Shown: positions 44,844-64,000, counted from the stretch's first letter. The stretch is DNA of 64,000 bases from Sphingopyxis sp. (GCA_040079655.1 JBEBJX010000001.1:14060-78059); one strand, 5' to 3'. The notes: generated from the sequence alone by a model not told the origin. A program made the numbers and translations.

Positions 44844-44872
44844 ATCGGCCTGAGGGGGAAGTCGCAGGGCCG

Positions 44873-45256
44873 CTAACCCTTCGGCTGTTCCCACAGTTCG
44901 ATCGCATTGCCCTCCGGGTCATGGACGCGGGCAAAGCGCCCGAGCGACGGATCATCCCATTCGGGTTTGGTGATAACCTCGGCACCCGCCGCACGGAATG
45001 GTGCGAGCACCACGTCAAGATCGTCGACCCTGACGTTGATCATGAACGATTTGTCCGCCGCAAAATAATCGCTGTCGGCCTTGAACGGCGCAAAAACCAT
45101 CGGCCCGCCCTGCGTGGCCCATACCCATTCATTGGCCTCTGCCAACGGGTCCGACACACAGCCCGCGCCGATGCCCAGCCATTCCTTGTACCAAAGGGAG
45201 AGCGCATCGGGGTCTTGCGCCCTAAAGAACAGCCCACCCATGCCAAGCACGCTCAT
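44873..45256 (-). CDS. VOC (glyoxalase/bleomycin resistance) family protein
   Basis: V.GMGGLFFRAQDP..L..WY, FMIN.RVDDLD, GRFARVHDPEGNAIELW; AGGAGG RBS. Confidence 0.88.
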   Translation of the reverse strand: MSVLGMGGLFFRAQDPDALSLWYKEWLGIGAGCVSDPLAEANEWVWATQGGPMVFAPFKADSDYFAADKSFMINVRVDDLDVVLAPFRAAGAEVITKPEWDDPSLGRFARVHDPEGNAIELWEQPKG

Positions 45257-45273
45257 GCCGCTATCCTCCTTGC

Positions 45274-47554: not shown

Positions 47555-47797
47555 GCCCACACCATCATCATCCGAATGCTCGATCTTGCTCACCACAATC
47601 CCTTTTCAAAAAGGCGCCAATAGTTTTGCCGCCATAATCTGACAATGCCACACATCACAGCGCCCTGAAAGAATAGACGCTATTCACGAGATGGGGGGTT
47701 GGAACAGCCGGATAAATCCCCTAAGCCCGTGACTCAGAGATGCCGTCAGAGCATCCATAGGGGTCGCGTAACCGTCTGTTTGGGGAGGGAGCGACAT

Positions 47798-49153
47798 ATG
47801 GCAGTCACCGATCATGTAGATCTTGCCACATTTATGGAAGGGGTGGCGCGCCGCAACCCCGGCCAAACCGAATTTATTCAGGCTGTTCAGGAAGTCGCCG
47901 AGGATATTTACGACTTTATCGAGGATAAAGAGCCATATCACCGCGAACAGATTTTGCGGCGGATTGCCGAGCCTGACCGCGTCCTCTCGTTTCGCGTCTG
48001 CTGGGAAGATGACAATGGCCATGTCCGGGTTCAGCGCGGCTGGCGGGTGCAAAACAACAACGCTATCGGCCCGTATAAGGGCGGCATCCGTTTTCACCCC
48101 AGCGTCACCGAATCGATCCTCAAATTCCTCGCGTTCGAACAGACGTTCAAAAATGCGCTGACCGGACTGCCGATGGGCGGCGGCAAGGGCGGATCTAACT
48201 TTAACCCCAAGGGCAAGAGCGAGCGCGAAATCATGCGTTTTTGCCAAAGCTTTATGAACGAGCTGTATCGCCATATTGGGCCGGACACCGATGTCCCGGC
48301 GGGTGACATTGGCGTTGGCGGGCGCGAGATCGGCTTTATGTTCGGCCAGTATAAACGGCTGACCAATCATTGGAACGGCGTGTTGACCGGCAAGGGGTTG
48401 GAATATGGCGGCTCGCTCATCCGCCCCGAAGCGACAGGATATGGCGCCGTATATTTCCTTGCCGCGATGTTGCGCACCAAGGGGCTTGACCTCAAGGGCA
48501 AGACTGCGGTGATTTCCGGCTCGGGCAATGTCGCCACCCACGCCGCCGAAAAAATCACCCAACTGGGCGGCAAGGTGCTGACCCTGTCCGATTCGGGCGG
48601 GTTTATTCACGACCCCGACGGCATCAATCAGGACAAGATCAATTGGGTGAAAGCGCACAAGACGCATCGGCGCGGGCGGATAGAGGATTATGTCACCGAA
48701 TATCCTGGCGCGACGTTCACCGCCGGAAAAACGCCGTGGGGCGTGCCATGCGATGTCGCGTTGCCCTGTGCGACGCAAAATGAGCTGCTCGGCGATGATG
48801 CGCGCGCGCTGGTCGCCAATGGCTGTATCGCGGTCAGCGAAGGTGCCAATATGCCGACCAACCTAGAAGGCGTGCATGTGTTCAAGGATGCGCGCATCCT
48901 GTTTGCACCCGGCAAGGCCGCCAATGCCGGCGGGGTTGCGGTGTCGGGGCTGGAGATGAGCCAGAATAGCGAGCGGCGTTCATGGAAAGAGGCCGAGCTG
49001 CAACAGATGCTGCTCGACATTATGGAGGGTATCCACGAACGTTGTCTCACCTATGGCCGGATTACGCCCGATTATGTTGATTATGTGAAGGGCGCGAATA
49101 TCGCCGGGTTCAAAAAAGTCGCCGATGCTATGCTGGCATTTGGTGTAGTATAG
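47798..49153 (+). CDS. gdhA: NADP-specific glutamate dehydrogenase
   Basis: GPYKGGIRFHP, KNALTGLPMGGGKGG, DVPAGDIGVG, RPEATGYG, KAANAGGVAVS; GGGGAGG RBS before ATG 47798. Confidence 0.97.
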   Translation: MAVTDHVDLATFMEGVARRNPGQTEFIQAVQEVAEDIYDFIEDKEPYHREQILRRIAEPDRVLSFRVCWEDDNGHVRVQRGWRVQNNNAIGPYKGGIRFHPSVTESILKFLAFEQTFKNALTGLPMGGGKGGSNFNPKGKSEREIMRFCQSFMNELYRHIGPDTDVPAGDIGVGGREIGFMFGQYKRLTNHWNGVLTGKGLEYGGSLIRPEATGYGAVYFLAAMLRTKGLDLKGKTAVISGSGNVATHAAEKITQLGGKVLTLSDSGGFIHDPDGINQDKINWVKAHKTHRRGRIEDYVTEYPGATFTAGKTPWGVPCDVALPCATQNELLGDDARALVANGCIAVSEGANMPTNLEGVHVFKDARILFAPGKAANAGGVAVSGLEMSQNSERRSWKEAELQQMLLDIMEGIHERCLTYGRITPDYVDYVKGANIAGFKKVADAMLAFGVV

Positions 49154-49224
49154 GCAGGCCATAGAAAGTTAGGCGGACACGGCGGGGGTCGGAAACTATG
49201 ACGGATGCATGGCAAAGGGCGCGG

Positions 49225-50592
49225 ATGCGCATTAGCCTGTTTGGGGCGGCGGCGGCAATACTGCTGGCGGCGCTGGTCCTCGTCGCACCCGAAGCGCGCT
49301 CCAATGCTGCACAGGACGGCGCGCATCTTGGCGTTGCATCCTGTGCTGGATCAACCTGCCATGGCCGAATGCTGGGCGATGGGCCTGTGGTGCGACAGGA
49401 CGAGATCGCGCGATGGCAGGAGCCATCGACCCAAAGCGGTGCCCATTCGCGGGCCTATTCTGTGCTTTCCAATGCGCGTAGCCGCACCATCGCCCGCAAT
49501 CTGGGCATTGCCGACGCCGCCAGCTCCTCGACCTGCCTTGGTTGTCATTCGAGCGCCGCAGCAACCAGCGGCGGGGCATTTCGCTATCAATTGTCGGACG
49601 GCGTCAATTGCGAAAGCTGCCACGGCGCGTCATCTGGCTGGATTGCATCGCACTATGCCGGAACGTTGACTGGCGCGGCGCAGCATGATGATAATGTAAG
49701 GCGCGGGCTGCGGCGATTGGAAGACCCGGTGGTGCGCGCGGGGGTGTGCCTTGATTGCCATTTTGGCTCGGCAACGGACGGGCAATTTGTCACCCACCGC
49801 ATCATGGCGGCGGGGCACCCGCGCATCGCCTTTGAGCTCGATCTGTTTTCAACATTACAGATGCACCATGTTGAGGACGCCGACTATGCCCAGCGCAAAG
49901 GCAGTGTTGACCATGTGCGGATGTGGGCGGTGGGTCAGGCGATGGCGATCGAACGCTCTCTGTCGCTGTTTCAAAACGCCAATCGCGGCACCGATGGCGT
50001 GTTCCCCGAGTTTACTTTCTATGACTGCCATAGCTGTCATCGCCGGATATTCGACCAGGCACAGCCTAGCATAACCGCAGTCGGCAACCCAGCGCGGCCC
50101 ATTCCCCAAGGGATGCCGCCCTATAATGATGAAAATATGATCATGCTGTCGGCAGCGGCACGCGTGGCCGCACCCAGTTTGGCGACGCGTTTTGACGAAA
50201 AGGCGCGCGCTTTTCACGCGGCGATGACCCGCGACCGCGGGGCTGCGGTGGCGGCAGCACGCGAACTGATGGCAGCGGTGGGCGACGTGCGTAGCGCATT
50301 GGCGGGCACGAACTTTGGTGCCGGATCAGCACGCCAAATGGCCCAGGCGATTGCGGGAGAGGCGATCCGCGCCCGCTTCACCGATTATGAAGGGTCGGTG
50401 CAGGCGGTGATGGGGATTGATACATTATTGAATGCAATGATCAGCAACGGACAAGCGACAGTGGGATCGGCGGCGGGTATTCGTGGTGACATCAACCGCG
50501 CCTATGCGGCGGTGCGCGACCCCAATGCCTATCGCCCGCGTGATTTCCAATCCGCACTCGCCAGTGCCGTTCGCAGCATCGGTGCGCTGTGA
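49225..50592 (+). CDS. Periplasmic multiheme c-type cytochrome (cytochrome c554-like N-domain, 5 heme motifs)
   Basis: Signal peptide; CAGSTCH, CLGCH, CESCH, CLDCH, CHSCH; helical C-terminal domain; start 49198 or 49225. Confidence 0.85.
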   Translation: MRISLFGAAAAILLAALVLVAPEARSNAAQDGAHLGVASCAGSTCHGRMLGDGPVVRQDEIARWQEPSTQSGAHSRAYSVLSNARSRTIARNLGIADAASSSTCLGCHSSAAATSGGAFRYQLSDGVNCESCHGASSGWIASHYAGTLTGAAQHDDNVRRGLRRLEDPVVRAGVCLDCHFGSATDGQFVTHRIMAAGHPRIAFELDLFSTLQMHHVEDADYAQRKGSVDHVRMWAVGQAMAIERSLSLFQNANRGTDGVFPEFTFYDCHSCHRRIFDQAQPSITAVGNPARPIPQGMPPYNDENMIMLSAAARVAAPSLATRFDEKARAFHAAMTRDRGAAVAAARELMAAVGDVRSALAGTNFGAGSARQMAQAIAGEAIRARFTDYEGSVQAVMGIDTLLNAMISNGQATVGSAAGIRGDINRAYAAVRDPNAYRPRDFQSALASAVRSIGAL

Positions 50593-50682: not shown

Positions 50683-52680
50683 ATGGTCTTTGATACAATC
50701 AAAGGACGTCATGCTCTAGGCTGGACAGCCTGTTTGGCAATGAGCCTGGCCGGATGCGGCAGCGGCGGCACTGGCGGCCCAGGCGGCGGATCGCCCTCGC
50801 CAACACCAACCCCAACACCGACCGGCATGGCCTTTGTGCTGCCCGCAGCCGAGGCGCTTAGCGTCTCCGATGTTGAGCGCATCATCGGCCAGGCGGTTAC
50901 CGAAGCCCAGGCGCGCGGGCAAAATGCGGTGATTGCGGTGGTTGATCGCCCCGGCAATGTGCTTGGCGTTTTCCGCATGACGGGCGCACCGCCAACCTCT
51001 GTGGTCGGCGCAGCGCCCAATGGCCAAAACCGCGATGCACAGGGCCAAACCATCCCATCCACCGCAGCAGCCATCGCCAAGGCGGTCACCGGCGCCTATC
51101 TGTCAAGCGGCGGCAATGCCTTTTCCACCCGCACCGCCAGCATGATTGTGCAACAGCATTTTCCGCCTGCGCCGGTCGCGGTGGGGCTTGAGAGCGGCCC
51201 GCTTTATGGTGTGCAATTCAGCTCGCTGCCCTGTTCTGACCTGTCGGCGCGCTATCGCGACGGCAACCTTGGGACGGGGCCGCTGATCGGGCCAAAGCGT
51301 TCGCCGCTTGGCCTGTCGGCGGATGCGGGCGGGCTGCCGCTCTATAAAAATGGCGTGCTGGTTGGCGGCATTGGCGTGATGTCCGATGGCGTCTATGGTT
51401 TTGACCCCGATGTCACCAATATCGACAATGACCCAGAGGAGTATAGCGCGCTGGCGGGAACACGCGGGTTCGAAGCACCCGTGGAAATCCGCGCCGACCG
51501 CATCCCCGTTGATGGCACGACATTGCGCTATTCGGATGCGCGCTATGACCAATTGACCACCAGCACCGCCCCCGCATTTGCAACGATTAACGGCACATTG
51601 GGGCAATTGATCGCAGTGCGCGGCTATTTTGGCGCTCCCGTCCCCGTTATCCAGGCGGGCGCGATTTACGGCACAGAAGCGTCGGGGCTGCGGCTCGCCA
51701 CGGCAGCAGAGTTTAGCCGCAGCGACGCGATGATCCTGAGCAATGGCGCGGGAACGGGGCGCTACCCGATACGCGGCGGCACCGATGCCGGCACCGTCGC
51801 CACACCGATGAGCGCCGCTGAAACGCGCGCGATATTGGAAGAGGCCTTTACCGTCATGGCGCGGGCGCGCGCGCAAATCCGCCGCCCATTGAACGCCCAG
51901 GCGCAGGTGACGATCAGTGTCGTTGACAGTTTCGGCGCGGTGTTGGGCATGGTGCGTTCGCCCGATGCGCCACTGTTTGGCATTGACGTCAGCCTGCAAA
52001 AGGCGCGCTCGGCAATGTTCCTGTCAAACAGCGTCGCCGCCGCCAATTTGCTGGCCGATCCTGACCCTGCGGTTCGTACCTATGTCGGCGCGGCGCGAAC
52101 CTTCCTCAATGACCCAGCCGCCCTCACCGGCACCGTCGCTTATTCCAATCGCGCGATCGGCCTGTTGCATCGCCCCTATTTTCCCGACGGCGAAGTCGGG
52201 CGCGCCAACGGCCCATTTTCCCGCGATATTGGCGGGTTTAACCCGCTATCGACCGGGCTGCAAAGCGCGATGACATTTCCCGACATCCTCAATCACCTGT
52301 TGTTTGTCCTCAATATCAACTCGGCTGATGTGAAACAGCGCTGCACCAACATTCCCGACAGCGCGCCCGGGCTTAATCGCTTGGCCAATGGCATGCAGAT
52401 TTTCCCCGGTGCGGTGCCCATTTATCGCGGAAATCAGCTGGTCGGCGGTATCGGCATATCGGGCGACGGCATCGACCAGGATGATATGGTGGCCTTCCTC
52501 GGCGTCGCCAATGCGTCCGCGCGGCTGGGCGGCAGCGTAACGCAAGCGCCGTTTGATCGCCGCGCTGATCGCTTGGTCGTTACGCTTCCCGATGCGCGGC
52601 AAGTGCGGCTGCGCTATGTCAATTGCCCGTTCACGCCGTTCCTCGATACCGACGCGCAAAATGTCTGTCAGGGCCTGTAA
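50683..52680 (+). CDS. Lipoprotein with tandem GlcG/HbpS (DUF336) heme-binding domains
   Basis: Lipobox LAGC plus PT linker; two copies of the pattern AVVD..G..L / KA..A / GG(L/V)P.Y..G.LVGGIG. Confidence 0.75.
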   Translation: MVFDTIKGRHALGWTACLAMSLAGCGSGGTGGPGGGSPSPTPTPTPTGMAFVLPAAEALSVSDVERIIGQAVTEAQARGQNAVIAVVDRPGNVLGVFRMTGAPPTSVVGAAPNGQNRDAQGQTIPSTAAAIAKAVTGAYLSSGGNAFSTRTASMIVQQHFPPAPVAVGLESGPLYGVQFSSLPCSDLSARYRDGNLGTGPLIGPKRSPLGLSADAGGLPLYKNGVLVGGIGVMSDGVYGFDPDVTNIDNDPEEYSALAGTRGFEAPVEIRADRIPVDGTTLRYSDARYDQLTTSTAPAFATINGTLGQLIAVRGYFGAPVPVIQAGAIYGTEASGLRLATAAEFSRSDAMILSNGAGTGRYPIRGGTDAGTVATPMSAAETRAILEEAFTVMARARAQIRRPLNAQAQVTISVVDSFGAVLGMVRSPDAPLFGIDVSLQKARSAMFLSNSVAAANLLADPDPAVRTYVGAARTFLNDPAALTGTVAYSNRAIGLLHRPYFPDGEVGRANGPFSRDIGGFNPLSTGLQSAMTFPDILNHLLFVLNINSADVKQRCTNIPDSAPGLNRLANGMQIFPGAVPIYRGNQLVGGIGISGDGIDQDDMVAFLGVANASARLGGSVTQAPFDRRADRLVVTLPDARQVRLRYVNCPFTPFLDTDAQNVCQGL

Positions 52681-52683
52681 CGG

Positions 52684-54633
52684 ATGAGCGTCACTTTCGC
52701 CTTTGCCCTGCCTTTGGTGGCTTCGGTGGTGCCCGCCACGACGACTGTCGAAACGGTGACGAACCCCGAAGAGAGCGAGAGCACGCCTGAGGCCGCGCCT
52801 GAAAACGCCGAGCAAGCCGAACCGTCGCCCCCGCCGCCGCCACCCGACTGGCAACGACGTATCGAGCCAACATTGTTGCAGGAAATCCTAGAAGGCCGCC
52901 GCCGCCCGGGCTATCAACCCGGCCTGCCAGAGGCGGTGACGCAGGAAAATGTCGGGGCAATCCGCGCCCTGCCGCCATCGGCATTTCCACAGGAGACATT
53001 GCCGATACCCGATCGCTGGCGGCTGATCACAGCGCTTTGCCCGGTGCAGAGCATCTTCACCGCGCTACAAAATGTCTGCCATTCCGCGCGCGACCCCTAT
53101 CATCAAAATCTGCTCAAGGGTGACAGACCCATCCCGCCCGAGGATTTCCCCAGCTTTTTGGGAATAGAGGGGCATGACTGGTTTTTAACCTTGTCGGCAA
53201 TTTCAGACACGGTGGTCGAGCCGCGCAGTTTCCCCATCCCGGTCGGCGTCCAAACGACAGAGCGGCCCGACAGCAACAATGTGTTCGGTCGCCCGACCAG
53301 CCTGGTCTTGTCACAAACATTCATTATGGGCGCGGCGCTGACCAAGGGGATGACCGCGTTCAAGCCACCCGATGTTGAATATCGCGTCGCGATTGCGTTC
53401 AACATGAATTATGTCGATGTGCCAGAGCGCCGCGTGCTGTTTGTCGAACCATCGCGTCCATCCCATCGGTTTGATTATTTTCTGGGCGTCCAGGAAGCCT
53501 TTATCGACAAGCATCTGGGCAATGATTCAGACCGCTATGATTTTCATTCGATCCGCGTCGGCATTCAGCCCTTTCAGACCGATTTTCGCGGCTTTCTGTT
53601 CAATGATAATCAGCTCGGTATCCGCCTGTTTGGCAACCGCGACAATAATCGCTTTCAATATAATCTGGCGGCATTTTGGCGGCTGGAAAAGGACACCAAT
53701 TCGGGCCTGAACGATGTCACCCAAACCCCGCGCAATGATTTTGTGCTCGCGGCCAATCTGTATCGTCAGGATTTGCCTATCCCCGGCCTGACCAGCCAAG
53801 TGACGCTTGTCTATAACCGCAACCGCGAAGGCGGCGACATCCATATCGACGACAATGGCTTTCCCATTCGCCCCGCGCTGTTCGGCACATTGCGCGGGCG
53901 CGATTATGATGTGTTTTACGCTGGTTACAACGCCGATGGTCATGTCGGCCGCATCAACCTGACAACCTCACTCTACGCGGCATTTGGCAAGGACCACAAC
54001 AACCCCATCACCGATCGGCCGGCGCGGATTGCCGGCTATTTCGCCGCCGCCGAAGCGAGTTATGACCATAATTGGATGCGCTTTCGCCTCTCGGCGCTCT
54101 ATGCCAGCGGCGACGGCAACCCCTATGACGATGTTGAGAGCGGGTTCGATGCCATTTCTGAAAACCCCCAGTTTGCGGGGGCCGATACCAGCTACTGGAT
54201 CCGCCAGGCTATCCCCTTTGCCGGCGGCGCGCGCGCGGTAACGGTCAATGGGCGTGGCGGGGTGTTAAACTCGCTGCGCTCATCCAAGGACGAAGGGCAA
54301 TCGAACTTCACCAACCCGGGAACGATATTGCTGGGGGTTGGCGGCGATTTCGACATCAGACCCGACACGCGCGTAACCGCCAACATCAACCATTTATGGT
54401 TCGAAAATACGCGGGTGATAGAGGTGCTGCGCAACCAAGGCGGCATTTCGCGCAACATTGGCTGGGACGTCTCGGTGTCGAGCATCTATCGCCCCAACAC
54501 CAACCAGAATATCGTGCTCAGACTGTCTGCCGCCGCGCTTATCCCCGGGCGCGGGTTCGACCAACTCTTTGCCAATAGCCCGCGTAGGGGGGCCTATTAT
54601 TCCATCCTCGCCAACGCAATATTGAGTTTTTGA
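52684..54633 (+). CDS. Predicted outer-membrane beta-barrel protein of unknown function
   Basis: Signal-like N-terminus, Pro/Glu-rich linker, many amphipathic aromatic-ended strands, C-terminal YYSILANAILSF ending in Phe. Confidence 0.6.
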   Translation: MSVTFAFALPLVASVVPATTTVETVTNPEESESTPEAAPENAEQAEPSPPPPPPDWQRRIEPTLLQEILEGRRRPGYQPGLPEAVTQENVGAIRALPPSAFPQETLPIPDRWRLITALCPVQSIFTALQNVCHSARDPYHQNLLKGDRPIPPEDFPSFLGIEGHDWFLTLSAISDTVVEPRSFPIPVGVQTTERPDSNNVFGRPTSLVLSQTFIMGAALTKGMTAFKPPDVEYRVAIAFNMNYVDVPERRVLFVEPSRPSHRFDYFLGVQEAFIDKHLGNDSDRYDFHSIRVGIQPFQTDFRGFLFNDNQLGIRLFGNRDNNRFQYNLAAFWRLEKDTNSGLNDVTQTPRNDFVLAANLYRQDLPIPGLTSQVTLVYNRNREGGDIHIDDNGFPIRPALFGTLRGRDYDVFYAGYNADGHVGRINLTTSLYAAFGKDHNNPITDRPARIAGYFAAAEASYDHNWMRFRLSALYASGDGNPYDDVESGFDAISENPQFAGADTSYWIRQAIPFAGGARAVTVNGRGGVLNSLRSSKDEGQSNFTNPGTILLGVGGDFDIRPDTRVTANINHLWFENTRVIEVLRNQGGISRNIGWDVSVSSIYRPNTNQNIVLRLSAAALIPGRGFDQLFANSPRRGAYYSILANAILSF

Positions 54634-57600
54634 TGGTGATGCAACGCCCCGCCTTTCTCCGTTTCGCTACGTTCATGCTGGCTCTGCTCACCATGCTCAG
54701 CGCGCTCGCCTTTCTCACGCCATCGGCCATCGCCAATGAGGGCGAGGTGCCCGTTGAGCGGCATTATGTCACCGCCCCAAATGCCCCCGCAAACCAGATA
54801 GGCGCAACATTCGAGGAACAGCGTAGCGCAGTGATGGCCAAATCCGAAGGGTGTTTCAGCTGCCATGTCCGCACCGACGAGCCATCGATGCACGCCAGCC
54901 CAGCGGTGCAGCTGGGCTGTGTCGATTGCCACGGCGGCGACGCAAGCGTTCGCGGTGACCCGGCGCTTGGCTATGCCCACCCCGACAATATGGCCGCACT
55001 AACCCGTGCCCATGTGCTGCCGCGTTACCCGCGCAGCTGGAACTGGCCTTCATCGGCCAACCCGCAGCGCAGCTACGCCCTGCTTAACCGCGAAGCACCT
55101 GAGTTCCTCCGCTTCGTCAACCCCGCTGATTATCGCGTTGCCCGCGAAGCATGCGGCGCGTGCCACCTCGCTATCATCGAAAATGCCGAGCGCTCGATCA
55201 TGTCAACCGGCGCGATGCTGTGGGGCGGGGCGGCCTATAACAATGGCATCGTCCCGTTCAAATCCTATTTGATGGGCGAAAGCTATACCCGCGAGGGCGA
55301 GCCAGCCTGCATCACCAGCCCATCGACCATATTGCCGCGCGAACAATGGGCCCGCGCCTGTGCCGACATCACCATGCCGGCGAGCGAAATATTGACGCCC
55401 GAAGAGCAAGCGCGCGGTGCACTGTCGCGCATGTACCCGCTGCCCAGCTGGACCGTGATCCCCCCGGGCGATGTGTTCCGCGTATTTGAACGCGGCGGAC
55501 GCAGCATCAACCCGGTGTTCCCAGAGATTGGCCTGCCCAATTCAACCGGGCAGATCCAGCGGCTTGACGAGCCTGGCCGCCCCGATCTGCGCCAGTCCAA
55601 TCGCGGGCCCGGCACTGGGCTTCGTGTTGCCATTCCGGTGCTCAACATCCACAAAACGCGGCTCAACGACCCGTTCATGTGGTTTATGGGCACTAATGAC
55701 CAACAAGGTGATTATCGTTCATCGGGATGTTCGGGTTGCCATGTTGTTTATGCCAATGACCGCGAGCCGCGCCACAGCAGCGTCTATGCCCAATATGGCC
55801 GCGACGGCCAGACAGCGACAGTTGACCCGACCATTTCCGGCCTGATGCAGCGCGCGCCTGTTCACGGGGAGAGTGGGCATGGCGAAGCGGGGCATGGTGA
55901 GAGCAGTAGCGGAGATGACGCACATGCCGAGGACGCACATGCCGAGAGCGGCCATGGCGGCCTGATTCCGGCTGGGTCACCGACACGCCGCGAGAGTGGC
56001 CACCCGATCCGCCACGCCTTCACCCGCGCCATCCCGACCGCGCAGTGCATGAACTGTCACATGCACCAGCCCAATGTATTCGTGAACACTTACCTTGGCT
56101 ATACGATGTGGGATTATGAAGCCGATGCGCCGCACATGTGGCCTGGCCCTGAAAATGAAGCGCCGCGCCCAGCCGGCATGAGCGACGAAGATTATAACCG
56201 CATCTATCGCAGCCAGCATTACCCGACCGCTACCGAGGTTCGCGCGATCAATGACCGCAATCCAGAGGGCGCGGCAACGCACGGCCTATGGGGCGATGTC
56301 GAGTTTCTGCGCGATGTGTACAGCCTCAACCCTGATCTCTCGGACACGCAATTTGCCGACTATCACGGCCATGGCTGGAATTTTCGCGCGGTGCTGCGCC
56401 GCGACCGCGAGGGCAATCTGCTTGATGCCGAGGGGCAAATCGTGCCGCCCGATGACCCCGAGCGCTGGCGCCGCAACGGCGAGGGCGAGTTTGCGCCGAT
56501 CGGCGTCAACCCTGGGCGCACCGTCCATTTGATGGACATCCACGCCGAAAAGGGAATGCAATGCGCCGATTGCCACTTCAGCCAAGACAGCCATGGCAAC
56601 GGGTTTATCTATGGCGAAGTTGCCAACGCGATCGAGATTGGTTGCAAGGATTGCCACGGCACTGCTGATGCCTACCCAACCCTGCTCACCTCCGGCCCTG
56701 CGGCACCGCCCGAAGGGACCAACCTCGCGCTGCTCCGCAATCCCGATGGCCAGCGGCGCTTTGAATGGGTCGATAACCCCGACGGCAGCCGCAAGCTTTT
56801 GCAGCGGTCGATCACCGACCCCGCTGTAACCTGGGAAGTCAGCCTAGTCCGCGACACGGTGACGCTCGGCAACCCGCGGTTCAACGCGCGCGCCGCGCGT
56901 GCCAAGCTTATGGGCCGTGTCAGCGAAGACGGGCAAACAAGCTGGGGCACCGGCGTCGCCTCCGATAATCGCGCCCATGGCGACGACCGCATGGCCTGTT
57001 TCACCTGCCATTTGTCATGGACCACCAGCTGCGGCGGCTGCCACTTGCCGATAGAAGCCAATTGGCTGACTAATGAGCATCATTTTGAAGGCGAAACGTC
57101 CCGTAATTTTGCGACCTATAACCCACAGGTCGCGCGCGACGAGATGTTCCAGCTGGGCATCCACCAAACCACCAAGGGCAATATCATCGCACCGGTACGC
57201 TCTTCATCGGCGCTGGTATTGTCTTCGACCAATATCAACCGCGAGCGTATCTATGTTCAGCAACCGCCGATCAGCGCGATCGGCTATTCGTCACAGGCCT
57301 TTGCGCCGCATTTCCCGCACACTGTGCGCACCACCGAAACCAAGACATGTAGCGACTGTCATTTGTCCGAAGACGAAGACAATAATGCCATCATGTCGCA
57401 GCTGCTGTTGCTCGGCACCAACTATGTCAATTTTGTCGGGCTCAACAATTTTGCGGGGCTGGAGGGCGGGTTCCAGGCGACGCGCGTCACCGAATGGGAT
57501 GAGCCACAGGCAGTCATCGGTAGTTATCTCCATCGCTATGCCTACCCCGATTTCTATCGCCTGCATGTCGACCAAAATGGCCGCGAGCTGCGCAATTGGG

Positions 57601-58832
57601 TGCGCGGTGCAATCCTTAACGATCATTTGTCGGGCGAGGGCGGCACCGAAGAGTTCCAAAATGTCGTGCAGGGCACCCGCGATCCGGTTTCCTGCCTGCA
57701 AATGCGCGGCGAATATATGTTCGTCGCCGAAGGACGCGGCGGCTTTGCGGTTTATGATATTGCGTCGGTCGCCAACAAGGGCTTTTCAGACCGCATCATT
57801 ACCGCGCCATTTTCTCCGCTCGGTCACGATCAACGCGTCGAAAGTCGCAACGCAACCTGCATGGCGCTCCCCACCAATCAGGCAATAGCGCCAACGCGCA
57901 GCACCGAAACATTGCGCACCATCAACCAGGAACAGCCGTTCCACCCTATCTATAATTATGCGGTGGTGACCGACGCCGAAGAGGGGTTGATCCTTGTCGA
58001 CGTCAATACATTTGCCGATGGCGAGCTGCGCAACAACAACTTGCGCCGCGCGCTCACCTGGAACCCCGATGGCGTGTTGAACGGCGCGCAGCACATCACG
58101 CTGGCGGGGTCGGTTGCCTATATTACCACTGCGCATGGGCTGGCGGTGGTTGATCTGGCCGATCCCATGAGCCCGCGCCTTACCGCCGACATTGCGATGG
58201 ATGGTGCCAAGGCGAGCACGATCCAGTTCCGCTATCTGTGGGTCAGCGACGCGAGCGGTATCAGGTTGTTCGACACCACCGATATGCGCGTTCCGGTGGC
58301 GGTGCCAAGCGGCGACATTGCGCTGCCGAGCGCGCAGCGCATGTATATCGCGCGCACCTACCTCTATGTTGCGGCGGGGGATCAGGGGCTGGTTATCATG
58401 AATGTGACGCGGCCACGCGCACCCGCTGAGCTGATGCGTTACACGGCGGGCGGCACGCTCAATGATGCGCGCGACGTGGTGGTCGCATCGACCAATGCCA
58501 GCCTGTTTGCCTATGTCGCCGATGGCCGCAACGGGGTGAAGATATTGCAACTGACCAGCCCCGCCAGTCAGCCCAATTTCTATGGCTTCAGCCCGCGCCC
58601 GGTGCCCGAACTCATTGCCTGGGCGCGCACGCCGACCCCGGCGGTTGCGATGTCCAAGGGGCTGGACCGTGACCGCGCGGTTGATGAAACCGGCGGGCAG
58701 ATTGCTGTGTTCGGGCGGCTTGGCTCGCGGCCATTTACACGGCCGGAGATGGAACGGCTGTTCCGCACGCCGGGTGGACTCTTATACAAGGTCAGCGACC
58801 GAACCGATATGGCGCGGTGGGCGGGGAACTAG
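54633..58832 (+). CDS. Large secreted decaheme c-type cytochrome with C-terminal LVIVD-repeat beta-propeller
   Basis: Signal peptide; ten CxxCH motifs (CFSCH, CVDCH, CGACH, CSGCH, CMNCH, CADCH, CKDCH, CFTCH, CGGCH, CSDCH); repeats such as GLILVDV, GLAVVDL, GIRLFD, GLVIMNV; TGATG coupling to the barrel gene. Confidence 0.85.
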   Translation: MVMQRPAFLRFATFMLALLTMLSALAFLTPSAIANEGEVPVERHYVTAPNAPANQIGATFEEQRSAVMAKSEGCFSCHVRTDEPSMHASPAVQLGCVDCHGGDASVRGDPALGYAHPDNMAALTRAHVLPRYPRSWNWPSSANPQRSYALLNREAPEFLRFVNPADYRVAREACGACHLAIIENAERSIMSTGAMLWGGAAYNNGIVPFKSYLMGESYTREGEPACITSPSTILPREQWARACADITMPASEILTPEEQARGALSRMYPLPSWTVIPPGDVFRVFERGGRSINPVFPEIGLPNSTGQIQRLDEPGRPDLRQSNRGPGTGLRVAIPVLNIHKTRLNDPFMWFMGTNDQQGDYRSSGCSGCHVVYANDREPRHSSVYAQYGRDGQTATVDPTISGLMQRAPVHGESGHGEAGHGESSSGDDAHAEDAHAESGHGGLIPAGSPTRRESGHPIRHAFTRAIPTAQCMNCHMHQPNVFVNTYLGYTMWDYEADAPHMWPGPENEAPRPAGMSDEDYNRIYRSQHYPTATEVRAINDRNPEGAATHGLWGDVEFLRDVYSLNPDLSDTQFADYHGHGWNFRAVLRRDREGNLLDAEGQIVPPDDPERWRRNGEGEFAPIGVNPGRTVHLMDIHAEKGMQCADCHFSQDSHGNGFIYGEVANAIEIGCKDCHGTADAYPTLLTSGPAAPPEGTNLALLRNPDGQRRFEWVDNPDGSRKLLQRSITDPAVTWEVSLVRDTVTLGNPRFNARAARAKLMGRVSEDGQTSWGTGVASDNRAHGDDRMACFTCHLSWTTSCGGCHLPIEANWLTNEHHFEGETSRNFATYNPQVARDEMFQLGIHQTTKGNIIAPVRSSSALVLSSTNINRERIYVQQPPISAIGYSSQAFAPHFPHTVRTTETKTCSDCHLSEDEDNNAIMSQLLLLGTNYVNFVGLNNFAGLEGGFQATRVTEWDEPQAVIGSYLHRYAYPDFYRLHVDQNGRELRNWVRGAILNDHLSGEGGTEEFQNVVQGTRDPVSCLQMRGEYMFVAEGRGGFAVYDIASVANKGFSDRIITAPFSPLGHDQRVESRNATCMALPTNQAIAPTRSTETLRTINQEQPFHPIYNYAVVTDAEEGLILVDVNTFADGELRNNNLRRALTWNPDGVLNGAQHITLAGSVAYITTAHGLAVVDLADPMSPRLTADIAMDGAKASTIQFRYLWVSDASGIRLFDTTDMRVPVAVPSGDIALPSAQRMYIARTYLYVAAGDQGLVIMNVTRPRAPAELMRYTAGGTLNDARDVVVASTNASLFAYVADGRNGVKILQLTSPASQPNFYGFSPRPVPELIAWARTPTPAVAMSKGLDRDRAVDETGGQIAVFGRLGSRPFTRPEMERLFRTPGGLLYKVSDRTDMARWAGN

Positions 58833-58848
58833 AGTCCCATCACACCAC

Positions 58849-58946
58849 CGTCATTGCGAGGAGGCATTTGCCGACGAAGCAATCCAGCGCGGTGCACGCC
58901 TGACTCTGGATTGCTTCCCCCAGCCTTCACTGGGGTCGCAATGACG
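58849..58946. repeat. 98-bp nested palindromic REP-like element between convergent genes
   Basis: Outer cgtcattgcga/tcgcaatgacg, inner gaagcaatccag/ctggattgcttc, extra ccccag/ctgggg hairpin; resembles the gtcattgcga...gcaatgac elements common in alphaproteobacteria. Confidence 0.85.
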
Positions 58947-58955
58947 CCTCCCGCG

Positions 58956-59417
58956 CTATGGCTCCACCGACTCTACGCTCACTGGAAAATTGACCGAGCG
59001 CGCGATGAAGCAAAGTCGATGCGCCTCATCATGCAGCGCGTCCGCCTCTGCGCGGCGCGCCTCGTCGCTGATCGTCACGGCAGGGTGCAGCGTCACGGAC
59101 ACAAATTGCCCGCCGCCATCCGCACCCTCGGTCATCACGCCGACAGGGTCGTCGGTGTATGCGGTGACGTTGATCCCCGCCACCGCCGCCAGGTGCAGAT
59201 ACCACAGCTGGTGACAGGCGCTGATTGACGCGACCAGCAATTCCTCGGGGTTCCACGCGCCTGCGTCTCCGCGAAAGGCGGGGTCGGATGACCCGGCGAT
59301 GGCGGGCTTGCCGCTCGCGGACAGAATATGCTCGCGGCCATAGGCGCGGTAGTCGGTGGTGCCGCCCCCATGATTGCCGGTCCATTCAAGGTGGAGTGTA
59401 TAATGATGGTCGCGCAT
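58956..59417 (-). CDS. OsmC/Ohr-family protein
   Basis: GSSDPAFRGD...WNPEELL.A..SACHQLWYL and C-terminal AH..CFIA.SVNFPV. Confidence 0.85.
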   Translation of the reverse strand: MRDHHYTLHLEWTGNHGGGTTDYRAYGREHILSASGKPAIAGSSDPAFRGDAGAWNPEELLVASISACHQLWYLHLAAVAGINVTAYTDDPVGVMTEGADGGGQFVSVTLHPAVTISDEARRAEADALHDEAHRLCFIARSVNFPVSVESVEP

Positions 59418-59448
59418 CGCGGCACTGTACACCGTGCCGCGCCGCTTA

Positions 59449-60309
59449 TCAAGCGCTGGAAACCCCCGGCCGCTCGCCAATCAGATGCTCGACCAGGTCG
59501 ATCATAGCGTGGTTATATTGCGCTAAAACAAGTCCTTGTGATGCGCTGTCAAAATGGCTGACCATTTGCGCGCCATTCCAGTGGTGGAGCGCATAGCCTG
59601 GGTCGTCGGCAATGATCATCGCGCGGTCGTCGGTCGCCCTCGTGTCAATCGGGCGCAGGTCGAGCGCGACCTGTGGCGAGGTCGATGAGCAAACGATTGC
59701 AGTCAATCCATGCCATTGCACGCTCATTGACCGATGCAAATGGCCGCAAATTAGCCCGCAAAGTTGCGGCGCATCGGCGATCGCCTCTGTGAAGCGCTGC
59801 ACCCATGGCTCGCTGGGGTCGGTGGTCATCCAGTCAATCCCGCTATCGAACGGCGGATGGTGCATGACAATATAGGTTGGAAGGTGAGGATGCTCGGCCA
59901 GCCGCGATTTCAGCCACGCGGCGCGCACTTCGCAAAAAGCGCCGCCGTGCCGCCCCTCTTCCAATGTGTCGATAACGATCAGGCGGAAATCTGCGAACAG
60001 CCGATCATATTGGATGAAGCCGCTGCGATCAGCGAAATCGGGGAAAACCTCGGTAAAGGCGGTGCGGACATCGTGATTGCCGACGCACGGAAACACGGGC
60101 CACGGATAAGCCGCAAAGGCATTGCGCAACCGCACATAGCTCGCCGTATCCCCCTGATCGGTCAAATCGCCCGTCGCCAACATCAGATCAGGCGCATTTG
60201 GGCCGACTGCCAGCCTTTCCAGCACCATGTCCAGCCGCTGCTGATTATATTCATCGGGATTCCCAGAATCAAAACCGATGTGAATATCGGTGATCTGGGC
60301 GATCAACAT
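59449..60309 (-). CDS. Metallophosphoesterase, CpdA/Icc-like cyclic-nucleotide phosphodiesterase
   Basis: QITDIH, TGDLTD, GNHD, MHHPP, GHLH calcineurin-like metal motifs; GAGAGG RBS. Confidence 0.85.
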   Translation of the reverse strand: MLIAQITDIHIGFDSGNPDEYNQQRLDMVLERLAVGPNAPDLMLATGDLTDQGDTASYVRLRNAFAAYPWPVFPCVGNHDVRTAFTEVFPDFADRSGFIQYDRLFADFRLIVIDTLEEGRHGGAFCEVRAAWLKSRLAEHPHLPTYIVMHHPPFDSGIDWMTTDPSEPWVQRFTEAIADAPQLCGLICGHLHRSMSVQWHGLTAIVCSSTSPQVALDLRPIDTRATDDRAMIIADDPGYALHHWNGAQMVSHFDSASQGLVLAQYNHAMIDLVEHLIGERPGVSSA

Positions 60310-60348: not shown

Positions 60349-62205
60349 CTACCGTTGCCTATCAGAGTCTGTGATGGAAATCACTCGGCCCGATTGCTCT
60401 CGGCCTGCGGGCCCTCGGCCTCCGCGCTGTCGACGGTCTGACGATTGCGGCGGTTGCCACGGGGCATCGGCCCGCTCACCTGCATGATATTCATGGCACG
60501 AAGCGCAAGGGCTTTCGACATCCGCGCCGGAATTTTCACCGCCATGACAATCGCGGCACACCTTGATTTCAGGAATCAGCAATTGATTGGCGGAGGATGA
60601 TCGCGCGGCCAGATGGCAGGTGCTGCATGGCTCATCATTATGCGGGCGATGATCGAACCAGCCATGCTCCAGATAGCGCGCGGTCTGGGTCACGGGCAGA
60701 ACGCGCCAATTGCTGTTTCCGGCGGCGGGCGCAAATATGGTGTGGCAATCATAACAAGCCCCACCGCGTGAAAATACGGCGCGCACCGCATCATTGGCGC
60801 GTGTCGGACGCACCGTGGTTTCGCGGAAATAGATGTTATAGATTTGCCCCTGGGCAAATTCACCCGGCCTGCGCCGCGCCATCCCGCCAAGGCTGATCGG
60901 CCGTGTTGGCGGGGTAGACCGATAATAGGCATAAAGGTCAGCCACCACCTGGGCCGGCTCACCATGGCGCAATGTCCGCGTCACCCCGCCCACGCTTTCG
61001 AACGACAGGCTGTGGCATCCCTGGCAATCGCGCTCCATATCAACGGGTTCAAAACGCACGCCATCCGCCGTTGGTCTATGGCAATTGGCACAATCCAGCC
61101 CCGACTGTTGGCCAGCGTTGAGGCGCAAATGTCGCGCCATGCGCGCCACCCCGCCCGCTTGTTGCAGATGCATATTATGCGGGAACTTCAGGCCGTTGAT
61201 GTCGGTTGTCTGTGGTGTGAGGGTGGTACGGACAAAACGTGGGGCCGCGCCCGGTGCCACTTGAACCCGTGGGCGAAACTGCGGGTGCGAAGTGCCAAAA
61301 TCACCCGCATCGCCGATCCGCGTATCGGTTAACCGGCTCGACATGCCGTTGTGACAATCGGCGCAAAATGCCTGAGCGGTGGCGGGCATCGGGCCTGCAC
61401 CCTCATGCTCATTATGACAATCAACGCATCGGCCCTGTGTCCGGTTGAACGCCGCACCAATGCGATTTAATACGCCGCGGAACATCCCCGGCTCGCCGCG
61501 CGCAGCCAATTGCCGATTGATCGGCGCATGGTCATGCGCATCATCATGGCAGCTTTTACATGCCTGATCGGTCACCGCGACAAAGGCATCTGTGTGGCAC
61601 GACTGGCAATCGCGAGCCAGCGCGGCGTGCACGCTGCTCAACGGCCCCGATGACCAGCTTTGGTCAGCATGAAAGGTTGCTGGGCGCTCCTCAATTCCGC
61701 GCCACTGCATATAGGCGAATATCGGCGCAATCAGGAAAGCGCCTATGACGAGCAGCGCAAAGGCCCAGGCCGAAAGCCGCCGCCCGGGCAATTTTCCTCG
61801 CAATGAAAATGCGCGCCCCTCATCACGATCAAGCGCCGAATGGCTGAGCTCATCTGTCCGTGTTACGGTCAATGTCACGCGGGAATCAGCGGTTTCGCTA
61901 TCCAGACCAACGGTGATACGATGCCCGCCAAAGCGCAGTTCAGCGCCATCACCAGCATCAATCGAGGCGCGGGTGACCGTGCGACCATCCCATTCAAATC
62001 CAAGGCCGGTTGTCGCCTGAACCTCGATATGGCGGCCGTCATTGGAGGTGATCGTGGCGTGATGAGGGATCACCGCCAGATCGGCGAGGTGGATGTCGCT
62101 CGACGCATCACGGCCGACCGCAATTTCACGCTGCACGAGCGGCGTCGAACGGATGATTTCGCGGCCAGCGCTGGTCACCGAAACCCGGCGGAGAAGGAAG
62201 CTCAT
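60349..62205 (-). CDS. FHA-like domain + TM helix + periplasmic decaheme cytochrome c
   Basis: N-terminal VGRDASSDIHL...HHA FHA-like pattern, one TM helix, ten CxxCH (CQSCH, CKSCH, CVDCH, CADCH, CANCH, CQGCH, CYDCH, CSTCH, CRDCH, CASCH); ATG 62205. Confidence 0.85.
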   Translation of the reverse strand: MSFLLRRVSVTSAGREIIRSTPLVQREIAVGRDASSDIHLADLAVIPHHATITSNDGRHIEVQATTGLGFEWDGRTVTRASIDAGDGAELRFGGHRITVGLDSETADSRVTLTVTRTDELSHSALDRDEGRAFSLRGKLPGRRLSAWAFALLVIGAFLIAPIFAYMQWRGIEERPATFHADQSWSSGPLSSVHAALARDCQSCHTDAFVAVTDQACKSCHDDAHDHAPINRQLAARGEPGMFRGVLNRIGAAFNRTQGRCVDCHNEHEGAGPMPATAQAFCADCHNGMSSRLTDTRIGDAGDFGTSHPQFRPRVQVAPGAAPRFVRTTLTPQTTDINGLKFPHNMHLQQAGGVARMARHLRLNAGQQSGLDCANCHRPTADGVRFEPVDMERDCQGCHSLSFESVGGVTRTLRHGEPAQVVADLYAYYRSTPPTRPISLGGMARRRPGEFAQGQIYNIYFRETTVRPTRANDAVRAVFSRGGACYDCHTIFAPAAGNSNWRVLPVTQTARYLEHGWFDHRPHNDEPCSTCHLAARSSSANQLLIPEIKVCRDCHGGENSGADVESPCASCHEYHAGERADAPWQPPQSSDRRQRGGRGPAGREQSGRVISITDSDRQR

Positions 62206-62216
62206 TTTACCCGCCC

Positions 62217-63101
62217 CTACCAGTAGAAAAAAACGCTGATGATGTGTGCCGTCAGCGCCGCGATCAACGCAAATGTCATCGGCACATGGGCGTAAAGCCA
62301 TATTTCGAGCAGCGACTTAAGCTTGAGATGTCGGCGCAACCGCCCCAATGCCGCAAGCTTGCGGGTCAATAAAATATCCACTTTTTCCATTGGGTCGTGG
62401 CCACTATCGTGCTGTGGCCCAGTCTGTGCGCGCACCAGCTCTAGCGCCCTCGCCGTGTCACACCGCCGCATCCGGCCCGTGAGGCGCGACCATAGCGAGC
62501 CGGCAAAAGGGTCCTGATCGAGCGACAGGCGGACAATCTGGGCATCGGCAGGGTCGAGCGGTTGCGCGGCCGCATGAAGTTGTCGATCAAGGCCGCGAAT
62601 ATCCTCGAGCATCTGTGCCTGGGTCCGCTCATCGCGATTGTTCGAGAGCAAGGCTGGCAAGCTGCTGTAAACGGTGATGCCCCAAATCCCCGACGCAATG
62701 ACCAGCATCATCAGGCTCCAGGCCAGCGTATGGACATTCCAGCCCAGTTGAAACCCCGTGTGCAATGTGCCGATGACGACAAGCGACAGCCCCAGATAGA
62801 CATGGGCCGATGTCCATGACTTTAACGACCATGCGCCGCGCGTCATCGCCCGTTTGCGCACACCGAGCAGCGTCAGCCACAGGATCAACAGCGCGCCGAT
62901 CGTTCCAAGCGTATAGCCATACCAACTGCCACCATTATGCCGCGGGGCAACATCGACCAGCCAGTAACTGACGAAGCAGATGAGGATGATGGCGACCGCA
63001 ATTTTGAGCCACAAGAAACCAGCATGCGAGAGAAAGCCCGTGTGCAGGCTCGATCGCTGGCGTTCGCCCTGTGCGGCGCGGCGTTTGAAACGACTAGCCA
63101 T
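62217..63101 (-). CDS. Inner-membrane protein, predicted di-heme cytochrome b (ferric-reductase-like)
   Basis: About 5 TM helices; His pairs H100/H114 and H272/H286, each 14 residues apart within a TM helix; TAATG coupling. Confidence 0.6.
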   Translation of the reverse strand: MASRFKRRAAQGERQRSSLHTGFLSHAGFLWLKIAVAIILICFVSYWLVDVAPRHNGGSWYGYTLGTIGALLILWLTLLGVRKRAMTRGAWSLKSWTSAHVYLGLSLVVIGTLHTGFQLGWNVHTLAWSLMMLVIASGIWGITVYSSLPALLSNNRDERTQAQMLEDIRGLDRQLHAAAQPLDPADAQIVRLSLDQDPFAGSLWSRLTGRMRRCDTARALELVRAQTGPQHDSGHDPMEKVDILLTRKLAALGRLRRHLKLKSLLEIWLYAHVPMTFALIAALTAHIISVFFYW

Positions 63102-64000
63102 TAATCGTCATCCTGCGTCAGGCGCGCGACGGACAAAAATGCCTCTGGCGAAACGCGGATGGCCGCCCCCGTCGGGCAGGCACGCACGCACGCTGGCCCG
63201 CCCGATATTCCAGAGCACATGTCGCATTTGATCGCCTTTTTCGGCGTTTCAACCCCCTTTGGCCCATGTGCTTTTGACCATTTTTTACTCGGCTCGCCAG
63301 GTCCAGGCCCAAGCCCGAGGAACAGCCAGGACAATAGGCCTGGTTTCTTTGGCGGCGCCGCGTCCATGCGAATGACGCCATAGGGGCAGTATCGCTGGCA
63401 ATTGCCACAGCCGATGCAGGTGTCGTCTATGAACACTTCGCCATCTGGGCCGCGGTGGATGGCATTGGGCGGACAGTCAGACATGCAATGCGGATGCTCA
63501 CAATGTCGACAAGAGGTTGGCACATGAATATGCGCGAAAGTTGCGCCGGCCTCACGATCGAGGCGCGATAATCCTTCATGGCTGTCGGCACAGGCTTTTT
63601 CGCAATTATCGCACGCCACGCACAATGTCTCGTCGATGAGCAACACATCGGTCGCTTCGCCAATCCCTTTGTCCACCAGGAATTTGGCGGTTTCAGAATA
63701 GAGCTCAACCGCACTGGAAAAGCTCGCTTTGCGCCCTTCGATAAAATTATTCAGGTCTTGGCGGGCGGCCATATCACCGCGCAAACGCGCCGCCAAATCG
63801 GGCTTGGTTGCCAATATTTTACGGAATGCGGCGCCCGACACCTTGACCACTTCGGATTTGACAGCAGCCTTGACCGTAGCCGTGCGCGCACCGCCGGCAA
63901 TAACCGCCATTTCCCCGACATAGGATCCCGCTGGCAGATAAGATAAAAACACCGGCTTGCCGCCAATCTGTTTTTCAACAACCATTGACCCCTGGCGAAC
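63101..64000 (-). CDS. Cyclic-nucleotide-binding domain fused to a DmsB/NrfC-type 4x[4Fe-4S] domain; 5' part lies beyond the window
   Basis: G.YVGEMA...GARTATVKA cNMP motif; CVACDNCEKAC, CRHCEHPHCMSDCP, CIGCGNCQRYCP, CDMC...PACVRACP; frame open to the window end. Confidence 0.85.
   Translation of the reverse strand, partial: VRQGSMVVEKQIGGKPVFLSYLPAGSYVGEMAVIAGGARTATVKAAVKSEVVKVSGAAFRKILATKPDLAARLRGDMAARQDLNNFIEGRKASFSSAVELYSETAKFLVDKGIGEATDVLLIDETLCVACDNCEKACADSHEGLSRLDREAGATFAHIHVPTSCRHCEHPHCMSDCPPNAIHRGPDGEVFIDDTCIGCGNCQRYCPYGVIRMDAAPPKKPGLLSWLFLGLGPGPGEPSKKWSKAHGPKGVETPKKAIKCDMCSGISGGPACVRACPTGAAIRVSPEAFLSVARLTQDDD

Follow-up and report, generated by a model that had tools for sequence, protein, structure and literature searches.

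What does an exported protein do that joins ten widely spaced c-type heme motifs to a beta-propeller, and with which partners does it work? The question is raised by a gene at positions 54633-58832 of a 64,000-nucleotide stretch of Sphingopyxis sp. DNA (GCA_040079655.1, JBEBJX010000001.1:14060-78059; the whole stretch is called the window, and positions are counted from its first nucleotide). An earlier reading of the sequence, here the original prediction, had described the product as a decaheme cytochrome of about 1400 residues with low and uneven heme density, fused to an LVIVD beta-propeller. It had proposed that the protein is the terminal catalytic subunit of its system, with an active site at the heme/propeller interface, and had pointed to the heme-plus-propeller architectures of cd1 nitrite reductase (NirS) and hydrazine synthase. 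The gene proves to be part of a set, carried on two operons, that forms one system. We lean towards reading its product as the outer-membrane-proximal end-piece of a trans-envelope electron chain that would run outwards, with bis-His hemes acting as relays.

The reading frame is open throughout, from the ATG at 54633 to the stop codon at 58832 on the plus strand, and encodes 1399 residues; a start at the TTG at 54630 would add one residue. The parts of the gene, with the evidence for each, are as follows:

54633-58832, plus strand: gene for a decaheme c-type cytochrome with an LVIVD beta-propeller, the decaheme-propeller protein (open reading frame, ten CxxCH motifs, Pfam, more than 7,800 homologs)
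54633-54734, plus strand: predicted Sec-type signal peptide, residues 1-34, cut between AIA and NE, without a lipobox (read from the translation)
54735-57512, plus strand: heme domain, residues 35-960, with ten heme sites (motifs, Pfam, profile searches, AlphaFold2, block conservation)
55845-55982, plus strand: hypervariable loop rich in His, Gly, Asp and Glu between hemes 4 and 5, residues 405-450 (predicted local distance difference test score, pLDDT, below 50; mean conservation 0.12)
57663-58652, plus strand: LVIVD beta-propeller of seven to eight blades, residues ∼1011-1340 (Pfam, AlphaFold2, Foldseek)
58653-58829, plus strand: charged, conserved C-terminal tail, SKGLDRDRAVDE..GRxGSRPF (invariant residues; pLDDT below 50 at model residues 387-406)

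The ten CxxCH motifs lie at residues 74, 96, 174, 366, 472, 644, 671, 789, 800 and 906 and contain 20 of the 24 cysteines; the number of motifs expected by chance from the protein's own composition is 0.013. Pfam matches are to LVIVD, Cytochrom_c3_2 and Cytochrome_C7. The N-terminus, MVMQRPAFLRFATFMLALLTMLSALAFLTPSAIA followed by NE, was read by eye as a Sec signal without a lipobox, and in some distant homologs a lipobox takes the place of the plain Sec signal. A secreted protein with several conserved CxxCH motifs is classed as a multiheme c-type cytochrome, and heme attachment is predicted here on that basis. The mature protein would be a Sec-exported cytochrome of ∼150 kDa with ten covalent c-type hemes and a C-terminal propeller of seven to eight blades. 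Its heme spacing is sparse, at 84 residues per heme over the span 74-910 and 137 when the whole mature protein is counted.

All ten heme sites are retained across 250 full-length relatives, with heme 3 taking the form Cx4CH in distant members. Outside the motifs, exactly ten histidines are at least 99% conserved in these sequences (H87, H127, H457, H461, H478, H632, H637, H654, H782 and H896). This is enough for ten bis-His hemes, and the residue count is thus compatible with such ligation throughout. Beyond the Cx4CH variant, the protein has no CxxCK or other unusual proximal-ligand motif. The top-conserved blocks surround heme 4, heme 5, hemes 6-7 and hemes 8-10, and the most conserved stretch of all lies at heme 4 (KTRLxDP...GTNDxxGDYRxSGCxxCHVxYAND, counted from K341, with C366 belonging to the heme motif). 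The region of hemes 3-5 combines few hemes with high conservation. Hemes 6-9 form c7/c3-like modules with the patterns VH632xxDIH637...C644xxCH and AH782...C789xxCH...C800xxCH, while hemes 1-2 have signatures like those of NrfH or of the N-terminus of octaheme nitrite reductase (ONR).

The two domains were modelled separately with AlphaFold2 (residues 35-1000 and 960-1399). The heme-domain model (pLDDT 71.7; predicted template modelling score, pTM, 0.78) gave no Foldseek match to the PDB at E < 1, the best-known entry being OTR 1sp3 at E = 2.4 with a template modelling (TM) score of 0.05; since multiheme apo-models are loop-rich, Foldseek may be weak on this one. A sequence search of the PDB with the single protein returned only chance-level c7 matches (E ∼0.2), and no Pfam or NCBIfam enzyme family scored above its cut-off. 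In keeping with the original prediction, then, no characterized enzyme family matched end to end in the Pfam, NCBIfam, PDB sequence or fold searches. The loop between hemes 4 and 5, HGESGHGEAGHGESSSGDDAHAEDAHAESGHGG, is of low complexity and confined to the Sphingomonadales clade. It has a median length of 69 residues and 5 His (range 2-12) in 121 close relatives, and in 128 members of other phyla the same segment is a constant 31 residues with no more than 3 His. The Sphingomonadales loop may bind metal.

The C-terminal part matches the LVIVD family (PF08309) in two stretches, with a score of 46.7 bits against a cut-off of 20.2 (E = 2e-12), and the AlphaFold2 model of residues 960-1399 is a beta-propeller with pLDDT 83 and pTM 0.83. 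The fusion and its size, like the low and uneven heme density, are therefore as the original prediction had them. The propeller itself turned out differently. NirS and hydrazine synthase are likewise enzymes that unite a c-type heme domain with a beta-propeller, and their propellers carry or shape the cofactor site through conserved His or Tyr residues, whereas in the alignment of the 250 full-length members the propeller studied here lacks any conserved His, Cys or Met. Foldseek returned only generic folds of the WD40, BamB, AztD and SMP30-like kinds (E ∼1e-8, TM ∼0.5), with NirS, NosZ and hydrazine synthase (HZS) all outside the top 50 matches. Together with the ten conserved histidines and the lack of CxxCK, the missing ligands weigh somewhat against a catalytic site at the heme/propeller interface. 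Propeller and tail share ∼30 invariant Asp, Glu, Asn and Arg residues. As the tail is badly modelled in isolation, it may be an interface segment.

The protein belongs to a large family without a name, with more than 7,800 database matches. The best 120 of these are 66-92% identical, and the named ones among them are from Sphingomonadales and are annotated merely as 'hypothetical' or 'LVIVD repeat-containing'; we found no description of a decaheme-LVIVD protein in the searchable literature. A relative is encoded in at least 579 species genomes, the closest being a Sphingopyxis metagenome-assembled genome (92%), and the carriers include named, cultured Sphingomonadales strains. An exhaustive search of 50%-identity representatives gave 634 clusters at E < 1e-30, with full-length members down to ∼40% identity, and a profile made from distant members retrieved proteins labelled Acidobacteriota, Planctomycetota, Rokubacteria/Methylomirabilales and Wallbacteria. 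Within its own order the gene is patchy (16 of 151 genomes, 9 of 54 genera), and class-wide it occurs in ∼14 of 256 good genomes, in many families, at ∼60% identity. Despite this patchiness, the GC content around the locus is flat (0.57-0.62), with no island signature.

Two members of the family have unusual ends. P0137, a 50%-identity representative of 1648 residues, has 28 CxxCH motifs, with ∼18 closely spaced extra hemes N-terminal to the ten-heme core; this is consistent with a wire fused to the entry side of the core and feeding it. P0288, annotated 'LPXTG cell-wall anchored', has a C-terminal hydrophobic anchor and was considered as a single-membrane case. Its gene adjoins one for a CarboxypepD_reg-type outer-membrane protein as well as the usual partners, so the case was dropped, and it is uninformative on localisation.

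The partners themselves are encoded on both sides of the gene:

49198-50592, plus strand: c554-like periplasmic cytochrome, 464 residues, with four CxxCH and one Cx4CH (motifs, family match, synteny)
50683-52680, plus strand: lipoprotein with HbpS/GlcG-like domains, 665 residues (PF03928 in three stretches; lipobox LAGC)
52684-54633, plus strand: putative outer-membrane beta-barrel partner, 649 residues, C-terminal Phe (weak porin-model match, conservation, end residue)
59449-60309, minus strand: metallophosphoesterase, cyclic-nucleotide phosphodiesterase-like (family matches; conserved next to the FHA-decaheme gene)
60349-62301, minus strand: decaheme cytochrome with an FHA-like domain (Pfam FHA at residues 51-125, ten CxxCH at residues 232-599, synteny)
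62217-63101, minus strand: putative inner-membrane di-heme-b protein (two WX3HX13H and SGXXG; weak PF01292 match)
63101-64000, minus strand: 3' part of the gene for an 816-residue flavoprotein with cyclic nucleotide monophosphate (cNMP)-binding and 4Fe-4S domains (the gene continues beyond the window; full gene L095:161-2611, minus strand)

The plus-strand operon runs from the c554-like cytochrome through the lipoprotein and the barrel to the decaheme-propeller gene, and every one of the 80 Sphingomonadales loci with enough flank has the four genes arranged in this way. The TGA stop codon of the barrel gene overlaps the ATG of the decaheme-propeller gene (TGATG), which indicates translational coupling, and a barrel gene is present in every locus with enough upstream sequence. 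We read the 649-residue partner as an outer-membrane barrel. It is 37% identical (E = 4e-117) to the protein at the same position in an acidobacterial locus, and its counterparts in four other loci have Phe or Tyr as the last residue. One of these, in a distant genome (L097:7612-9966; 784 residues, Tyr end), bears four CxxCH motifs in its N-terminal part and so fuses a cytochrome to a porin, which recalls Cyc2. The Cx4CH of the c554-like cytochrome (CAGSTCH at residue 49), a possible fifth heme site, is found also in the acidobacterial and Rokubacteria homologs.

The minus-strand operon is convergent with the first and adjacent to it in most Sphingomonadales loci. The decaheme-propeller and di-heme-b genes occur in an identical 16 of the 151 genomes of the order (chance 6.5e-22), and all eight genomes with more than 10 kb between the operons retain the membrane protein. 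Thus, the two operons form one system. The same parts list recurs in all five of the other-phylum loci examined, three labelled Acidobacteriia, Planctomycetota and Rokubacteria and two unlabelled, each with an HbpS-like lipoprotein encoded near the cytochrome. The coupling to the barrel, the synteny and the shared presence and absence with the inner module support the position of the protein as terminal, as the original prediction had it; its catalytic nature found no such support.

In the 816-residue protein a Pyr_redox_2/3 FAD/NAD(P)H flavoprotein domain comes first, then a pair of cNMP-binding domains; a Fer4_11 4Fe-4S module is also present. With the flavoprotein domain at its start, the cytoplasmic subunit is itself a putative NAD(P)H dehydrogenase. 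This module varies by lineage and comes in four kinds, all of the NAD(P)H type: a fused Pyr_redox, a NuoE/F-like form, an NDH2-like form with cNMP-binding, and an FHA-cytochrome-Fer4-Pyr_redox fusion. Such different flavoprotein solutions at one position argue for NAD(P)H as the cytoplasmic partner. The motifs of the di-heme-b protein are W96/H100/H114, W268/H272/H286 and S137GIWG. The longest open reading frame of the FHA-decaheme gene shares 85 nucleotides with the 3' end of the di-heme-b gene, so its true start is probably downstream of 62301. An acidobacterial locus (L093:2728-6055) carries, inside the system, genes for a FecR-like protein and a CHASE2-guanylate/adenylate cyclase; the cyclase fits the cNMP-binding domains and points to cyclic-nucleotide control.

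How would electrons pass through such a system? NAD(P)H would be oxidized by the cytoplasmic flavoprotein fused to its cNMP-binding domains and 4Fe-4S module. The di-heme-b protein, with two HX13H pairs like those of NADPH oxidases (NOX) and ferric reductases, would then move the electrons across the inner membrane, and the decaheme with the FHA-like domain and the c554-like cytochrome would carry them through the periplasm, to arrive at the module of barrel, decaheme-propeller protein and double HbpS-like lipoprotein. There, all ten hemes would be low-spin bis-His relays, and an acceptor at the outer membrane or outside it would receive the electrons by outer-sphere transfer. The propeller and its conserved tail would hold no cofactor site; their part would be to dock or bind the barrel, the lipoprotein or the acceptor. 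Outer-sphere transfer is how the bis-His outer heme of NOX and the MtrC-type cytochromes are understood to work. Among candidate acceptors we would place Fe(III) and other metal chelates and oxides first, followed by O2, which would give superoxide. The outward direction is argued from the two-heme membrane wire, which would follow the membrane potential in that direction only, and outward flow would mean regulated export of reductant, not energy-conserving respiration.

A barrel gene beside decaheme genes is likewise found in MtrCAB of Shewanella and Pcc/Ext of Geobacter, in which electrons are presumed to cross the outer membrane. The input differs, being here an NAD(P)H flavoprotein and a di-heme-b protein and not a quinol dehydrogenase. 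The end-piece differs too: it has neither the lipobox nor a TIGR03507 or PF22113 match that would place it with MtrC/OmcA, and no TIGR03508 match that would place it with MtrA/DmsE, its 84-137 residues per heme comparing with ∼33 in MtrA (PMC5566968). The best named relative is Geobacter ExtM (NF040943), a cytochrome of a selenite/tellurite reduction operon, which aligns over hemes 6-7 (E = 2.5e-23). However, the score of 82 bits compares with a cut-off of 800, the alignment covers the heme domain in part, and ExtM (599 profile positions) has no propeller. The ExtN and ExtO models align weakly to hemes 8-10.

The inner module has its counterpart in two clusters known from bioinformatic proposals, the PCC4 porin-cytochrome cluster of He et al. 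2017 (PMC5566968) and ptdABCDEFG (Ptd), named in bioRxiv 10.1101/2023.11.21.568154, which we read as the same cluster. Shared with this locus are the inner-membrane protein with two WX3HX13H motifs and SGXXG; an Fe-S (PF13247) and cNMP-binding protein and an FAD/NAD(P) oxidoreductase encoded upstream of it, here as the single 816-residue fusion; and a porin gene beside a multiheme cytochrome, together with a tetraheme c554-like protein and a second decaheme. The porin-adjacent cytochrome of PCC4/Ptd is, when the two are compared by description, a pentaheme with a beta-sandwich, in place of which the 1399-residue decaheme-propeller protein stands here, and the double HbpS-like lipoprotein appears in neither the PCC4 nor the Ptd description. 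On this comparison, the inner module matches PCC4/Ptd, and the end-piece with its propeller is a terminal unit of another kind that neither description includes. Alphaproteobacterial matches of ∼800 residues (∼30% identity, hemes 6-9) were considered as PtdA-like and rejected, since they are other proteins with 10-12 hemes and have no visible Ptd context.

Could the decaheme-propeller protein be an enzyme after all? Several observations weigh against a simple relay. Its heme ligation is assigned from residue counts, and H381 (96%) and H580 (98%) are also near-invariant in the 250 full-length sequences. A cluster of invariant, mostly polar residues around hemes 3-5 (K210, K341, R343, D346, N355, D360, R362, Y202, Y373, N375 and M190) is not explained by axial ligation, and Y829 is likewise invariant. 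Conservation is unusually high for an outer-membrane relay, at 60-70% across alphaproteobacterial families and 45-50% across phyla, and heme density is low. The family profile, searched against the PDB, gave local matches only, to NrfA and TvNiR (E ∼1e-3, hemes 1-2 and 6-7), and the porin-adjacent cytochrome of Ptd is reported in the NrfA COG (bioRxiv 10.1101/2023.11.21.568154). As to an outer-membrane location, a scan of the host genome for type II secretion found two secretins and a weak, sub-threshold GspL-like match.

The identity across phyla and the invariant cluster at hemes 3-5 keep alive a terminal catalytic reductase or oxidase. Its substrate, a small soluble molecule (an N- or S-oxyanion, peroxide or O2, for example), would bind in a pocket at one of hemes 3-5, over which the propeller might form a cap. 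The sparse hemes would suit such a role, as would the invariant heme-4 stretch with the further invariant Lys, Arg, Tyr, Asp and Asn residues, the two near-invariant histidines, the ∼30 invariant polar residues of propeller and tail, the weak similarity to NrfA/TvNiR, a pentaheme of the NrfA COG at the equivalent place in the Ptd cluster, and a dedicated CcmH-like maturation protein encoded nearby. However, ten universally conserved distal-type histidines for ten hemes leave each heme a potential second ligand, and for NrfA/ONR the protein has no CxxCK, its similarity is local and no fold match was found. The octaheme enzymes HAO, OTR and MccA gave no fold match at E < 1 and no sequence match, no enzyme family of Pfam or NCBIfam exceeded its cut-off, and the propeller lacks cofactor ligands and any resemblance to NirS, NosZ or HZS among its top 50 folds. 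We regard an enzyme of this kind as possible and, on the present evidence, somewhat unlikely.

A bolder form of the outward chain takes its cue from NADPH oxidases. Eukaryotic NOX/FRE and bacterial MsrQ-type proteins follow the same logic, from NAD(P)H through flavin and two b hemes (HX13H) to an external acceptor, and the NOX analogy has already been drawn for the PCC4-type inner-membrane protein (PMC5566968). The flavoprotein here is, in contrast, a separate Fe-S/cNMP protein, and the path is longer by at least 24 c hemes and a barrel; the comparison is made at the level of the system and implies no homology of the decaheme-propeller protein. In this form, the two operons would be the diderm counterpart of NADPH oxidase/ferric reductase, with cNMP-gated export of NAD(P)H electrons across both membranes and the decaheme-propeller protein as a dedicated terminal reductase that makes extracellular superoxide from O2 or reduces Fe(III) and other metal chelates for uptake. 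We put it forward as a speculation that is unlikely to hold.

Electrons might also run the other way, as in the PCC4 model of He et al. 2017, with Fe(II), Mn(II) or another extracellular donor oxidized and the electrons passed inward to the inner-membrane protein and on to the quinone pool or the cytoplasm. PCC4 was first noticed in Fe(II)-oxidising Zetaproteobacteria, Hyphomicrobium and drinking-water filter genomes (PMC5566968), and the inner-membrane protein here shares the WX3HX13H and SGXXG hallmarks. However, an NAD(P)H-type flavoprotein with Fe-S clusters stands at the cytoplasmic end in every lineage examined, inward two-heme transfer would oppose the membrane potential, and to reduce NAD(P)+ with Fe(II) would take a strongly uphill step. 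The named carriers, moreover, belong to Sphingomonadales, Acidobacteriota and Planctomycetota, which are generally known as mostly aerobic heterotrophs, not lithotrophs. We consider electron uptake very unlikely. Least probable of all, by a little, is a role in envelope maintenance or signalling akin to MsrPQ or DsbD, in which reducing power would serve to repair or sense oxidized envelope parts, the HbpS-like lipoprotein being the partner that matters for function, and the decaheme-propeller protein a scaffold or relay: that lipoprotein is present in every locus examined, HbpS of Streptomyces is a component of a redox-stress sensor, and regulatory parts are at hand (cNMP-binding and FHA domains, the phosphodiesterase and, in one acidobacterial locus, the CHASE2-cyclase), but at least 24 hemes would be a large investment for repair or signalling, the conserved gene set encodes no thiol or Msr-type catalytic partner, and the neighbouring OsmC gene is not conserved in other loci.

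Further features lie next to the two operons:

46622-47596, minus strand: CcmH/CycH-type tetratricopeptide repeat (TPR) protein (PF23914; linked to the system in most loci)
47699-49153, plus strand, with L094:22436-23830 and L093:6063-7601: NADP-glutamate or glucose-6-phosphate dehydrogenase

The TPR protein is likely an accessory for cytochrome c maturation, given its family. A gene for NADP-specific glutamate dehydrogenase lies within 10 kb of the system, on either side, in ∼31 of 80 Sphingomonadales loci and also in one Planctomycetota locus, and in one acidobacterial locus glucose-6-phosphate dehydrogenase takes its place; these neighbours may be connected with NADPH supply or may simply be syntenic. 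Upstream of the TPR gene (window 43152-46491) are genes for a HerA/DUF87-type ATPase (563 residues) and a cell-wall hydrolase (405 residues). Among related loci, the HerA gene was found in none and the hydrolase in one. At the tail of the minus-strand operon, an OsmC-like gene (window 58956-59480, minus strand) was seen only in the genome's own copy of the locus (L001) and, being absent from the other loci, is probably outside the system. A 124-residue open reading frame (58854-59228, plus strand) has no family match and overlaps the OsmC-like gene, and so is probably no gene.

Most known porin-cytochrome conduits belong to anaerobic metal respirers. Sphingomonadales, Acidobacteriota and Planctomycetota are common in soil and water and mostly oxygen-breathing. 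What is new here is a porin-cytochrome conduit, found in these mostly aerobic groups, with an undescribed terminal cytochrome, very large and of unsolved fold, an NAD(P)H-type input and cyclic-nucleotide-binding domains. If outward flow is true, many aerobes would own a regulated machine that exports reducing power, with consequences for the cycling of iron and manganese, for reactive oxygen made outside the cell and for bioelectrochemistry. In Gram-negative bacteria, few of the enzymes behind extracellular superoxide and reductive metal chemistry are known to have been identified. If the comparison with NADPH oxidase were also to hold, the system would provide a molecular source for the extracellular superoxide and the reductive metal chemistry of aerobic heterotrophs.

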